From positions 160,001 to 224,000 of IMG/VR virus record IMGVR_UViG_3300032038_000001: DNA of 64,000 nt. One strand, 5' to 3'. Below are positions 11,116 through 15,510 of this stretch, one piece after another (the first letter of the stretch is position 1; each line of letters starts with the position of its first letter). A model generated the notes under the pieces. The model searched no databases, was not told where the DNA came from, and saw only the letters and a program-made list of their open reading frames with translations. Both the position numbers and the translations under genes were made by a program. This DNA is from a virus. Taxonomy: Duplodnaviria > Caudoviricetes.

Positions 11116-11513
11116 TTAAAATCCGTTTATATTATTGAAAAAGCTCAGGTCTATAGAACCATCTGTATCATCGTCCATCTGTTCAATTATTTCTCCAGGT
11201 GTATTATTATAAACCGTGTTTTGAATTTCACCAGCTTTTACTAGTTTATATGTATCTTTCTGTGCTTTAATAGCAGCTTCTTTCATTAACTGTTCCCATT
11301 GTTTCTGTTGTTCTATTTGTTGCTCTTGTTTTTTTACCGACTCTATCAACCTAGGATCAACTAATGATGGATCGATTTCAGAAGCATGTTTCAATCCTTT
11401 ATTCTGTTCATCTTCGTTTAATTTACCTTTAATAATTCCAAATACAGGGAGATTATTACCATGATAGTAAACATAAAGGCACATTAGATAGCTCATTACA
11501 GAGTCATCATGAA
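11116..11513 (-). CDS. terL: terminase large subunit, exon 2
   Basis: splicing gives ..KIEAGPG-F-HDDSVMSYLMCLY, restoring the RNase H-like nuclease HDD motif in frame; spliced product 709 aa. Confidence 0.9.
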
Positions 11514-12701
11514 CAATATAGACTATATCATCATCTTCATATTCTATTATCAAATATGAAGAGCTCCCCATTTCGTTTTAATAGAATTACATATGGCTAA
11601 TATCACCATAAAACTAACCTATAAATAGGCACTACTCTACTCACTTCTTTACTTAAGTATTTCTCTTAAGCTATGCTTTCGATAGTCGTTGAACCTTGCT
11701 CTTAATAAGAGCCTTGGCTGCGGATTGTCTCTATTCTTAACCTTTTTACTATACCTAAGGAATTACCCTTCGCCACTAATATAAATATTAGTTTAGTAGT
11801 TAAGACCTAACGAGAGTTCCCCGCAATTAAAGGAGTTTATCCCGGTCCTCATGATGACTGTTTTTAATTTTTGATTTTATATATTTAACTCGTCCCCTAT
11901 TAAGTTCGGTATATTCCCAACCCATTTTTATCACCGTCTCTTTAACAGAATGATTTTTTAATAATCTTTCAATTTTTTTTATTTCTTCATATGATAAAAT
12001 GGAACTGAATTTTCTAATCTTTGGGAAATTGTAATTTTTACTAATAGATTTCCAGGTATCTCCACGCCTTATGTGTAATATAAAATCATACCCATATCCA
12101 TATTTAGCTTGGATTTTTTTAGGTGACATACCGGATTCTAAAAGTTCACATACTTTTTTAACATCTTGCTTTGTATGTGTAGATAAATTACATGTTTCAG
12201 AACCAACTATATTTGGACTTTTTAAACCATTTTTATATGCCCTAGAATTATTTTCTGAATAGGTACACCATTCTAAATTGTCTAATTTATAATTCATTTT
12301 ATTTCCATCCAGATGATCTATCACAGAATAATTGTGAGGATTTTCAATAAATGCGTTAGCAACTAGTCGGTGTATGGTTTTAGTTTTATATTTACCTTTT
12401 TTACCTAGTTGTATATTGATAGCCGGATATTGTAAACTTCTGGAGGATGGATTCATGTTAATCTTAAGTTTTTTATTAGTCTTAATATTATATACATTTC
12501 CATCCTGTGTTATCATATAATTCGTATCTTTATCATTTATAGTTATTATTTTACCAATGACACCATTTTCGAGTAATATTAATGATGAATAAAAACACGA
12601 ATCATAATTTCTGATAATATAAATATATGACATTAAATCAACTCCTATTAAATAATTATTGACTTGTTGTGCATGTATTTATCCAGATTACATTTTTTTT
12701 G
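11514..12701 (-). mobile_element. self-splicing group I intron (IA2-like) in terL, 1188 nt
   Basis: P AATTGCGGGGA (11828-11818), Q AATCCGCAGC (11726-11717), R TTCAACGACTATC (11693-11681), S GATATAGTC (11529-11521), P3 CTCCTT/GGGGAG; exon 1 ends in U (12702), intron ends in G (11514); IGS at 11859-11841. Confidence 0.93.
11827..12633 (-). CDS. intron-encoded HNH homing endonuclease (NUMOD4/I-HmuI-like)
   Basis: YMITQDGNVYN, IHRLVANAF, IDHLDGNKMNYKLDNLEWCTYSEN; own RBS and late promoter 12657-12668. Confidence 0.9.
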   Translation of the reverse strand: MSYIYIIRNYDSCFYSSLILLENGVIGKIITINDKDTNYMITQDGNVYNIKTNKKLKINMNPSSRSLQYPAINIQLGKKGKYKTKTIHRLVANAFIENPHNYSVIDHLDGNKMNYKLDNLEWCTYSENNSRAYKNGLKSPNIVGSETCNLSTHTKQDVKKVCELLESGMSPKKIQAKYGYGYDFILHIRRGDTWKSISKNYNFPKIRKFSSILSYEEIKKIERLLKNHSVKETVIKMGWEYTELNRGRVKYIKSKIKNSHHEDRDKLL

Positions 12702-14433
12702 AACCGGGTCCGGCTTCAATTTTACCAGATGATGTCCTTATCAATCTCGATATATCTCTTGTTATGTTTTGAGTAATAAATTTTTCTTTATATTCTTGAA
12801 CATGTCTTACTAGAATAGCCATCATATCTTCACGAGATTTGGTACCTGTATAAACTCCATAATATGATTTCATTGATGCTTGTTTTTTAAGCATGGATTC
12901 AATAGTACCAGATGCTATCGCATTATCTTCAACTAAATCTTTAGCTCTATCATAATAAAGATTTGCACGTATTCTACTATTAAGAAGATGGTCTATAATA
13001 GAATCACCAACACTATTTCTTTCGATACATAATACTGCTCTAGGTAAAATACTTATTAGTTCTATAAGCAATGCCTCAAATTTTGTTTCACCAATATATG
13101 AACATTCAAATTCAGCTTCTACTTCTAACGTATATGGATTTAATATTGTAATAGCATTATTATCTCCGTTAGTTCCCGTTGAACAGTCAACGCCGATAAG
13201 ATAAGCTGTGCGTGGATTGAGTTTTTTGTATATATCAAATCTATAATATTCAAGTAACCACATTTCATCTATTGGTTTATGAGCAATCTCAATAAGATAT
13301 TGAATATCTTCTTGATTAAATGGAGAAAGTGATGAACCGTGTAATCTTTGAAGTAGTATTTCACGTCTTACTGTCAAGGGATCTCCAATTTTAGCAGATA
13401 TATTTTTTAACCAATCTTCAGTTAGTCCTATTTGATAATACTGATATTCTATATAAAGAATCTTGTTACAATCTTTACCTTGTGAATCTATGTATTCCTG
13501 TATTTCTTCTTCGGTCATATCATAAAGACGTTCGGTCCATTTAGCAGTCTTATCTAAAATCTCCTGTGCCTCTTGACCAGCGGGTGAATCAAGATCTCCA
13601 GGTGTGCTAGTAAATATACGAGCATACATAGCACCATTCGCTTTAGCTCTAGCTGCTGCAGTTTCATATGTGGATACTGAGTTTGCTACTATAGTTTTTA
13701 TATGAGGTGTAAACTCAGCCTCATCGAAATGCTGTATTGGCGATGTAAGACCTCTAGCTAATGATAATGCTGTATCATATGATGTTGCTTTAGCTTTAGT
13801 GATAATAGTATTACCATTTATAGGATGTCCCATTTTTGTAGCATTATTAGTTGCTTTTGTAACCTTGCCATCATCATCAGTAAATGATTCAAATCTTAAA
13901 TATTCAGGTAAAAATCTTATTTGGTCACCAGTTCTCTTAAGATTTGTTTTACTATCTTCACCTGATTTATTTATGTATATAAATTGAGATTGTGAAGTAC
14001 CAAATGAGTACATCCATGTTTCCATAGCAATTGCTGACTGCGTTTTACCTTGTTGACGTGTTAAATTTAACCACGAGTCTAAACCATGTAAAATACACCA
14101 TGCCTGTGCAATATTACCTCTATTTGCCTTATATGGCACAGCAGTACCACCTGGATCAGGAATTCTGGATATTTCACGAAGATAATACCAAGGATTTCTC
14201 ATACATTCTGTCATAATTCTAGTTATTTGATCTTGCGTTAAATTAGTATGACCATCAGGTCCAACAGAGAACGGGTTAATATTTACCAAACTATAATCAT
14301 ATATCTCAAGCATAAAATAGCAATTTTTGATTCCAACTGTTTGTAAATCTTTTGCAACCTGCAAAAATGACCTATTCTGTGTTCCTAAGTCATATAACTT
14401 ATCATCTATTCTTGCAATACGAGATTTAGCCAT
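12702..14433 (-). CDS. terL: terminase large subunit, exon 1
   Basis: Walker A TRQQGKT, Walker B QHFDEAEF, coupling motif FTSTPG, nuclease IGVDCSTG and CIERNSVG. Confidence 0.92.
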
Positions 14434-14571: not shown

Positions 14572-15510
14572 CTATTCATCAATTATCACGCATATACTAT
14601 TTTTCAGATGATTCTGAATAAACTGTTGATGTGTAAACTTTTCACCATCATCTTCTTTTGATATATATTCAGTTGTAATCTTGGGTATCAAATCAAGAAT
14701 ATAATATCCAATATCACTATCACATATATCATGAATATTAACTTCAAATGCTATATGAGTATCATTTGGCATAGTTTTCTTAAGTGTACTTAAAATCTTA
14801 CAAAGATGTTTATTTTTGCCTACAGAGAATCCAAAATAGTTTCCAAAATATTTTGTCTCATCATCATTCTTAAAATTGATATTGTCAATCCCACAAGATA
14901 ATGATTTATTAATATTTCCTGCAGTAATAGCATGATAAAAATTCATAGTAAGTAGTCTTGGTATTACAGCGCTATTAATGCTTGAATATGTTTCGAAATC
15001 ATCCTGTAAATCACTAAGATGATTTACAATATCATTTTCATCGGTTATGATGTGCATATAAGGTGTACTATTATAATGAAACAGAAAATCATAAAGACAA
15101 AGTAATTGTAGCGTTACTATTCGCATTTCTGATTTCTTTGTATCACCAACTACAAAAAAAGGTATCTTATTTTCGTAACACCAAATCATGAGTAATGATG
15201 TTTTATTTAGAGGAAATTGCATTGAATGATCATACGTACTGTCTTGCCCTATAATTGGTATACGCACAATCTCTCTAAAGAAAAACCATATATTTTTTTT
15301 ACATTCTGATAGAATCATATCATAATAACTTCGTCCAGATATTGGGTCTGATTCTGGCATATTTTGATAATCAAAATCTAGTAACGATTTATTCTCAGTT
15401 TTGAGTATTTCTGATGAACCAACATAGTTTATTCCTTTATCCTGTAGTTCATAAAACATATTCTGAAATGTTTTATTTTTAGTATTTTTATCAATATACA
15501 TATTATACAC
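14572..15510 (-). CDS. degenerate paralogue of the terminase large subunit N-terminal region
   Basis: KNKTFQNMFYELQDKGI..ILSECKKNIWFFFREIVRIP aligns with TerL QNRSFLQVAKDLQTVGI..IMTECMRNPWYYLREISRIP; no Walker A. Confidence 0.65.
   Translation of the reverse strand: MYNMYIDKNTKNKTFQNMFYELQDKGINYVGSSEILKTENKSLLDFDYQNMPESDPISGRSYYDMILSECKKNIWFFFREIVRIPIIGQDSTYDHSMQFPLNKTSLLMIWCYENKIPFFVVGDTKKSEMRIVTLQLLCLYDFLFHYNSTPYMHIITDENDIVNHLSDLQDDFETYSSINSAVIPRLLTMNFYHAITAGNINKSLSCGIDNINFKNDDETKYFGNYFGFSVGKNKHLCKILSTLKKTMPNDTHIAFEVNIHDICDSDIGYYILDLIPKITTEYISKEDDGEKFTHQQFIQNHLKNSICVIIDE

Follow-up and report, generated by a model that had tools for sequence, protein, structure and literature searches.

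A probable mobile group I intron in a phage terL gene, with an HNH endonuclease gene running from loop L1 through the guide sequence into the ribozyme core

Gene layout and splice junction of terL

The stretch of DNA analysed here (the window) comprises 64,000 nucleotides (nt), corresponding to positions 160,001 to 224,000 of the IMG/VR record IMGVR_UViG_3300032038_000001, and is part of a 250-kb phage record whose genome is scored 100% complete. On its minus strand, the terL gene of this AR9/PBS1-like jumbo phage, coding for the terminase large subunit (TerL), is split by an insertion which is very probably a mobile IA-like group I intron, with an HNH endonuclease gene that lies in the loop of helix P1 (L1), reads through the internal guide sequence into the ribozyme core, and overlaps with this core as a by-product. 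The locus appears as three successive open reading frames (ORFs) on this strand, consisting of a 581-codon ORF (14433-12688, ending with ..SSGKIEAGPGSKKM before the stop), a 268-codon ORF (12633-11827) and a 151-codon ORF, in which the homologous part starts with ..HDDSVMSYL. The first of these is recognized as terminase large subunit by the PHROG profile phrog_32359 (E 4e-45), and the TerL is related to those of the AR9/PBS1, Staphylococcus S6-like and Yersinia phiR1-37 jumbo phages, as judged from tblastn matches to the TerL of AR9, PBS1, BpSp and phiR1-37. The main elements are as follows.

12702..14433, minus strand: terL exon 1, with 577 complete codons and the first base of a Phe codon divided between the exons, taken from the ORF list
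12688..12690, minus strand: UAA stop of the exon-1 frame, 12-14 nt into the intron (..GPGSKKM, then stop)
11514..12701, minus strand: group I intron of 1188 nt, IA-like, with P7.1/P7.2 present and without P2 or P9, omega-G at 11514
11116..11513, minus strand: terL exon 2, with 80 related loci starting with HDDS[IV]MSYL

Joining position 12702 to 11513 yields the sequence ..GKIEAGPG-FHDDSVMSYL.., which aligns without gaps to the uninterrupted TerL proteins of BpSp, phiR1-37 and Machias, where the counterparts of the junction read GKIEHRDGCNDD, GKIEHEQGMHDD and GRIDHPPGGHDD, respectively. The joined exons thus show full-length homology to TerL, and the conserved HDD nuclease motif, which directly follows the codon carrying the insertion, is restored. 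The proposed cut is the only one preserving the frame and the protein length with U preceding the 5' cut and G preceding the 3' cut, and the predicted spliced junction consists of GGACCCGGTT joined to TTCATGATGAC. Exon 2 retrieved 80 IMG/VR loci, about 60 of which lack the intron and show G.G[FM]HDD at this position. The initial annotation of this DNA had anticipated an intron-less terL reading ..GPGFHDD.., and exactly this sequence is present in the intron-less allele L011/L184, which is 78% identical over the C-terminal 233 residues of exon 1; the proposed splice product GPG-FHDD is therefore supported by naturally uninterrupted alleles. Accordingly, the annotation should be corrected to terL as a single spliced gene, not two fragments and a free-standing HNH gene.

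Guide sequence, ribozyme core and HNH gene

The pairing that defines the splice sites involves four short segments, two of which are also part of the HNH reading frame.

12702..12708, minus strand: P1 exon strand CCCGGUU, with U12702 as 5' splice-site U
11848..11859, minus strand: P10 guide strand AGUCAUCAUGAG, codons S H H E of the HNH ORF
11841..11847, minus strand: P1 guide strand GACCGGG, covering codons D R and the first base of the D that follows; G11847 is the partner of the splice-site U
11502..11513, minus strand: P10 exon strand UUCAUGAUGACU, coding for F H D D in the nuclease motif of TerL

The minus strand reads AGTCATCATGAG GACCGGG at 11859-11841, while exon 2 starts with TTCATGATGACT at 11513-11502. 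The pairing between guide and exon junction is continuous over 19 positions, comprising a P1 of 7 bp that ends with U(12702).G(11847) and a P10 of 12 bp, exactly as the initial annotation had it, and the first intron base adds one extra C-G pair to P1. This run is the longest one in the intron (the next one covers 9 positions), and its length was not attained in any of 2000 shuffled introns (mean 9.9, maximum 18). Moreover, the guide ends 5 nt upstream of P3, which is the required place for a group I guide when P2 is absent. The P1 loop, previously estimated at about 840 nt, measures 854 nt from the 5' splice site to the G pairing with U-1, or 842 nt without the P10 strand. A local guide candidate near the 5' splice site (AAUCUGG, ~12686-12680) was rejected, as it contains a mismatch and offers no U.G pair, the best alternative run extending over only 9 positions.

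The ribozyme core follows directly behind the guide and contains the following elements, among others.

11830..11835, minus strand: P3 5' strand CUCCUU, codons L L of the HNH ORF, pairing with GGGGAG at 11569-11564 (RNAalifold columns 15-20/325-330)
11825-11819, minus strand: P4 strand UGCGGGG, directly after J3/4 (UAAU)
11683..11687, minus strand: P7 5' strand GACUA, pairing with UAGUC at 11525-11521 according to the Rfam alignment, invariant in 10/10 alleles
11534..11562, minus strand: P8 hairpin, with compensatory changes in 5/5 counted pairs

An RNAalifold analysis of 10 allelic cores recovered P3, P4, P5, P6a and P8, with 18 of 33 pairs kept through double changes, including three pairs of P3 with compensatory changes. 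The P3-P8 helices are thus found in canonical order with covariation, except that P7 is present but invariant in all 10 alleles, so that no covariation is available for this helix. The assignment to subgroup IA is based on about 110 nt with hairpins at 11682-11570, between the P7 5' strand and the P3 3' strand. The identity as group I intron, proposed together with an Infernal-type check in the initial annotation, is supported by this covariation of the core, and the search with the Rfam model RF00028 gave a match over the full model length at 11912-11501 (minus strand; E 3.8e-10, 46.1 bits), just under the gathering score of 50 bits. The shortfall is due to the ends of the alignment, where P1 and P9 are forced: the 'P1' of the Rfam model (11912-11890) and its 'P9' (inside exon 2) were rejected as forced fits with non-canonical pairs, the latter consisting of exon sequence. 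An Rfam scan of the whole window at E 0.01 gave no match, the filters being stricter on long input, and the targeted and genome scans do find the intron. Note that a second weak RF00028 match is present in the same genome outside of the window (locus L002, G000:C1:71346-71480, plus strand, 135 nt, 35.1 bits, E 2.7e-8), which could represent another small or partial group I intron.

The gene inside the intron and its signals are located as follows.

12642..12646, minus strand: AGGAG Shine-Dalgarno sequence, 8 nt before the HNH AUG
11827..12633, minus strand: HNH homing endonuclease ORF, 268 amino acids, I-HmuI-like, in the same frame as exon 1
11827..11829, minus strand: HNH stop UAA within J3/4 (UAAU), directly before P4; same stop and frame in the alleles L191 and L107

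The product belongs to the I-HmuI type of endonucleases, as indicated by a Pfam HNH_3 score of 29.2 bits (cut-off, 24.8) and by an N-terminal region resembling I-HmuI (PDB 1U3E, E 1.6e-10 over residues 36-133), together with a match to phrog_59 (E 1.6e-40). The ORF ends with AGT CAT CAT GAG GAC CGG GAT AAA CTC CTT TAA, encoding S H H E D R D K L L and the stop. It had been claimed previously that the guide bases also encode the last residues of the endonuclease (SHHEDRDKLL) and that nearly the whole HNH gene resides in L1, its 3' end overlapping the guide and P3. Both claims hold for the 268-residue ORF, which shares 33 nt with the core up to the end of its stop codon, covering the P10 strand, the P1 strand and the 5' strand of P3. 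A local prediction of a hairpin sequestering the ribosome-binding site at the HNH start was no better than for shuffled sequences (z -1.18). A scan for sigma-70 promoters gave 24 sites against 23.7 expected and is therefore uninformative; these phages use their own RNA polymerases.

Allelic introns at the same codon

A series of terL alleles at the G/xHDD codon was drawn from uncultured IMG/VR phages. Ten of these carry an intron at the same codon as the window, namely L182 (=L010), L185 (=L017), L186, L191, L196, L212, L213 (=L012), L220, L226 (=L087) and L107 (=L209). In each intron-bearing allele, the guide is located directly before a P3 strand of the type ..AAAC[CU].., P1 consists of 6-9 bp ending with U.G, and P10 of 5-12 bp; the arrangement of a P1 with U.G at the 5' splice site, a guide located 5' of the core, a P10 and a terminal G is therefore common to all 11 alleles. 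The pairing bases of the exons represent synonymous or near-synonymous codon variants, and the guide changes along with them. P1 covaries with the guide in L213, L226, L186, L191, L196, L212, L220 and L107, and the combinations of P1 strands are as follows.

P1 exon CCCGGUU, guide GACCGGG
P1 exon CCUGGUU, guide GAUCAGG
P1 exon CCAGGCU, guide GGUCUGG
P1 exon CCAGGUU, guide GACCUGG
P1 exon GAAGGUU, guide GACCUUC
P1 exon GCUGGGU, guide GCUCAGC
P1 exon GUACGU, guide GCGUAC

In L185, an exon codon CAU is changed to CAC and the guide correspondingly from A to G (U-A to C-G), one further G-C pair has become G.U, and all 12 bp of P10 are kept. A P9 is missing in the window, L182, L185, L186, L191, L196 and L212, where only 7-14 nt separate P7 from the terminal G and P10 consists of 8-12 bp, while L213 and L226 combine a P9 hairpin with 5 bp of P10. 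L220 does not conform, its P9 being small and its P10 8 bp long. The role of the missing P9 may be taken over by a long P10, as suggested by a correlation over few related sequences only.

Among the 11 intron-bearing alleles, six are devoid of an ORF, one contains an ORF with its stop before the guide, one stops inside the guide, and three stop at J3/4. Homologous HNH genes are located in L1 of five alleles (the window, L226, L212, L191 and L107). The HNH proteins of the window and L226 share 50% identity over 250 residues, and the L107 ORF is 40% identical over residues 11-268, whereas the homology of the L191 and L212 proteins was judged by eye from their similar N- and C-terminal sequences. 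The stops of these ORFs are distributed as follows.

L226: TAG, 4 nt before the P10 strand
L212: UGA inside ..CGUGAG/G.., at the P10/P1 boundary
Window, L191 and L107: UAA of J3/4, in one frame in all three

The frame of L226 would likewise reach the UAA of J3/4 if continued past its TAG. Beyond a common ..KSK.. motif, the tails of the HNH proteins are unrelated, save for an H-x-E-D sequence which is fixed by the pairing, being the antisense of the F-H-D-D codons. The last 11 HNH residues are probably dictated by RNA pairing rather than by protein function. This distribution fits the core creep model, in which an ORF first inserts into a peripheral loop and is lengthened afterwards until it meets the next in-frame stop within the core (Edgell, Chalamcharla and Belfort, 2011, PMC3073962): bases of essential pairings also belong to the ORF, its relatives stop at different positions, and the extension ends at the next in-frame stop. 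Read-through to the UAA of J3/4 occurs because the HNH coding sequence does not contain a stop before the guide, and the overlap appears dispensable because L226 and L212 stop before or within the guide and six alleles manage without any ORF. The overlap is best explained as a by-product, either of core creep or of a fusion after a small deletion.

A close relative of the window is the ORF-less allele L010/L182, with 98% identity of TerL over the C-terminal 233 residues of exon 1 and flanks that are 96-98.5% identical (blastn), but with an intron of 369 nt versus 1188 nt. The difference is accounted for by one block, as determined by blastn:

11875..12694, minus strand: 820 nt absent from L010/L182, the exact borders being uncertain by 4 nt owing to AAAA on both sides

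The stretch CAAAAAAUCAAAAAUUAAAAAGCA separates the 5' splice site of L010 from the guide, and an ordinary short P1 hairpin is formed (RNAfold minimum free energy and centroid structures). The bases of the last 15 HNH codons and the stop (11874-11827) are retained in L010/L182, and the ribozyme therefore contains them with or without the HNH gene. The first four of these 15 codons (S K I K) can be aligned with the C-terminal end of the L226 HNH protein (..LKSKFE); this comparison of A-rich, low-complexity sequence provides thin evidence, which suggests that L010 may have lost the ORF by deletion, as opposed to an insertion having given rise to the window.

Several further features of the related loci were noted. 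In the ORF-less alleles L182, L185 and L220, the exon-1 frame runs 56, 254 and 125 nt into the intron, respectively, passing through the guide and core helices without meeting an early in-frame stop, which is not usual in phage introns. The intron of L191 (L191:883-2161) contains an HNH ORF (intron nt 60-962) that is continuous with exon 1 and also possesses its own GGAGG-AUG start, so that translation of the precursor would yield a TerL(N)-HNH fusion, as in mitochondrial introns. Furthermore, a 24-nt stretch in its L1 (intron nt 29-52) is identical in 21 of 24 positions to the exon-1 end of L197 (score 18, with a maximum of 14 in 500 shuffles) and looks like an exon remnant from recombination during acquisition of the intron or the ORF; a search for such an exon-like remnant in L1 of the window gave no significant result (score 8, null mean 7.5). 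The loci L050:3668-5050 and L089:11750-12715 contain ribozymes of the same lineage with endonuclease ORFs (NUMOD/I-HmuI-like, HNH_3) that end just upstream of or at J3/4, indicating that ORFs located 5' of P3 recur in this lineage. A motif screen for ORFs ending near P3 yielded mostly upstream exons, not endonucleases, and was discarded, but it did reveal L087. In cultured relatives, terL is interrupted as well, though at other positions: the terL of AR9 (L003) is annotated as five joined pieces, none of its introns being located at this codon, while the terL of phiR1-37 (L006) is split around g144 and that of Machias (L005) follows a homing-endonuclease gene. A literature search linking AR9/PBS1 to chimallin found no such report. 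Directly upstream of terL in the window, a 312-residue ORF (14572-15510, minus strand) represents a diverged paralog of the TerL N-terminus (phrog_32359, E 4e-10; BLASTP to TerL residues 15-113, E 4e-8), the similarity ending before the ATPase Walker A region.

Translation, splicing and comparison with known systems

From the standard group I pathway, we infer self-splicing of this intron as well as endonuclease activity, homing and interference by ribosomes, in the following sequence of steps. After transcription, P1 would form across the loop of about 850 nt, the guide pairing with the end of exon 1 and placing the U.G pair at the cut. An exogenous G would attack after U12702, the unusually long P10 of 12 bp would align exon 2, and ligation would restore ..GPG-FHDD.. 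and an intact TerL mRNA. As long as the RNA is unspliced, ribosomes on exon 1 would stop at the UAA located 12-14 nt into the intron. A ribosome on the last ten or so HNH codons, which end at 11829-11827, would have to unwind the guide strands of P10 and P1 as well as P3 and would also cover P4, and HNH translation and splicing should therefore compete on one unspliced molecule. The excised intron RNA would be freely translatable without any loss to terL. During co-infection, terL alleles without the intron are presumably nicked or cut by the endonuclease, which thereby spreads the intron; intron-less, target-like terL alleles do exist in IMG/VR. A coupling of HNH translation to the maturation of terL mRNA, as inferred in the initial annotation, would be physically reasonable and is plausible, with a precedent in T4 td/I-TevI.

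Some features weigh against a mobile intron with a merely incidental overlap. The RF00028 score is slightly below the curated threshold, P2 and P9 are absent although both are present in most group I introns, and P1 has to close across about 850 nt. In addition, the HNH gene has a good AGGAG-AUG start and no convincing hairpin occluding it, while some damping of its translation would be expected if this harmed splicing. The first three of these points might also be taken to indicate a decaying or non-autonomous intron, in which the large L1 and the loss of P2 and P9 create a need for a protein helper (a host factor or maturase-like activity) or for ribosomes keeping L1 unfolded, and some phage introns of the Bastillevirinae are indeed spliced in vivo, but not in vitro (PMC11878797). 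Yet the core shares 98.5% identity with its counterpart in the ORF-less allele, with all pairings kept, terL is essential in a genome scored as complete, and the P9-less alleles all have a P10 of 8-12 bp, which could replace P9 in docking the 3' splice site, making decay rather improbable. The notion that the 19-nt complementarity arose by chance, or reflects something other than a guide, such as a remnant of an endonuclease target site copied into the intron, can practically be dismissed. The remnant in L191 demonstrates that exon-derived sequence can reach L1, but the match in the window is antisense rather than sense to the junction, surpasses all shuffled introns in length, is placed exactly where a group I guide must be, and is accompanied by covariation with the exons in 10 other alleles, which contradicts such an origin.

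The overlap itself might have been selected as a regulatory switch, with HNH translation to the J3/4 stop and folding of P1/P10/P3 being mutually exclusive, so that endonuclease synthesis throttles or times the maturation of TerL mRNA, or splicing ends endonuclease synthesis from the precursor. This would agree with the same frame and J3/4 stop occurring in three diverged ORF-bearing alleles (window, L191 and L107), with the continuity of the L191 ORF with exon 1, and with the strong SD-AUG starts of the overlapping alleles; ribosomes within the core of the td intron have also been described to reduce splicing (Gibb and Edgell, 2010, as cited in PMC3073962). However, of the homologous HNH genes in this loop, that of L226 already ends before the guide and that of L212 at the P10/P1 boundary, and six ORF-less alleles keep the same guide, so the overlap is not required. 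The recurrence of the J3/4 stop is moreover the default outcome, as the UAA in UAAU is near-invariant and the P10/P1 strands are free of stops in that frame because they are antisense to conserved codons. A selected switch therefore appears unlikely, and slightly more so in a version in which it serves to time TerL or to confine the endonuclease to the precursor and in which the 12-bp P10 evolved as a replacement of P9. The natural series at one terL codon, comprising 11 intron-bearing and about 60 intron-less alleles, is unusually complete and of the kind predicted by the core creep model. The same alleles represent ready-made constructs for testing the competition between ribosomes and ribozyme folding.

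The terL intron is a further example of a known phenomenon and not a new mechanism, since overlaps between ORFs and core sequences constitute a recognised class (Hausner et al., 2014, PMC3984707). Among ORFs inserted in P1, that of I-Ssp6803I overlaps P1/P2 by 61 nt, while I-PpoI is encoded in P1 without overlap (PMC3073962, Table 1). The tRNA-fMet intron of Synechocystis PCC 6803 coding for I-Ssp6803I is thus similar in carrying an ORF in P1 that overlaps core pairings (PMC3073962), but resides in a bacterial tRNA gene and encodes a PD-(D/E)XK enzyme, in contrast to the phage protein gene and the HNH enzyme described here, and its overlap affects P1/P2 instead of the P10 strand, the P1 strand and P3, with P2 absent. 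The T4 td intron with I-TevI is likewise an IA-type phage intron in a protein gene, in which the 3' end of the ORF feeds essential helices, and entry of ribosomes into core bases impairs its splicing (Gibb and Edgell, 2010, as cited in PMC3073962 and PMC3984707). It differs in having the ORF in P6 with an overlap of 20 nt with P6a/P7, a GIY-YIG enzyme, and a ribosome-binding site sequestered by a hairpin in early transcripts, whereas the ORF analysed here is located in L1, overlaps the guide and P3, and showed no significant hairpin at its ribosome-binding site.

Other relatives share the endonuclease, the ribozyme or the host gene. The DNA polymerase intron of SPO1 encodes the related endonuclease I-HmuI (1U3E), is also a phage group I intron in an essential gene, and exhibits a small overlap of 9 nt between ORF and P8 (PMC3073962, Table 1); its ORF is located in P8 rather than L1, and host gene and ribozyme periphery differ as well. 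The polA intron of the Staphylococcus Kayvirus phages (phage K, A5W), which codes for I-KsaIII, is about 73% identical over P3-P7 and therefore belongs to the same ribozyme lineage, but its HNH ORF begins after the P7 5' strand, so that the same ribozyme family apparently hosts ORFs in different loops. Finally, terL introns with HNH genes have been documented in the Bastillevirinae (PMC11878797), and these as well as the terL introns of AR9 resemble the intron described here in being of IA type, often carrying HNH genes, and interrupting the terminase of large Firmicutes phages. AR9 differs in lacking an intron at this codon, its match being continuous across the site.

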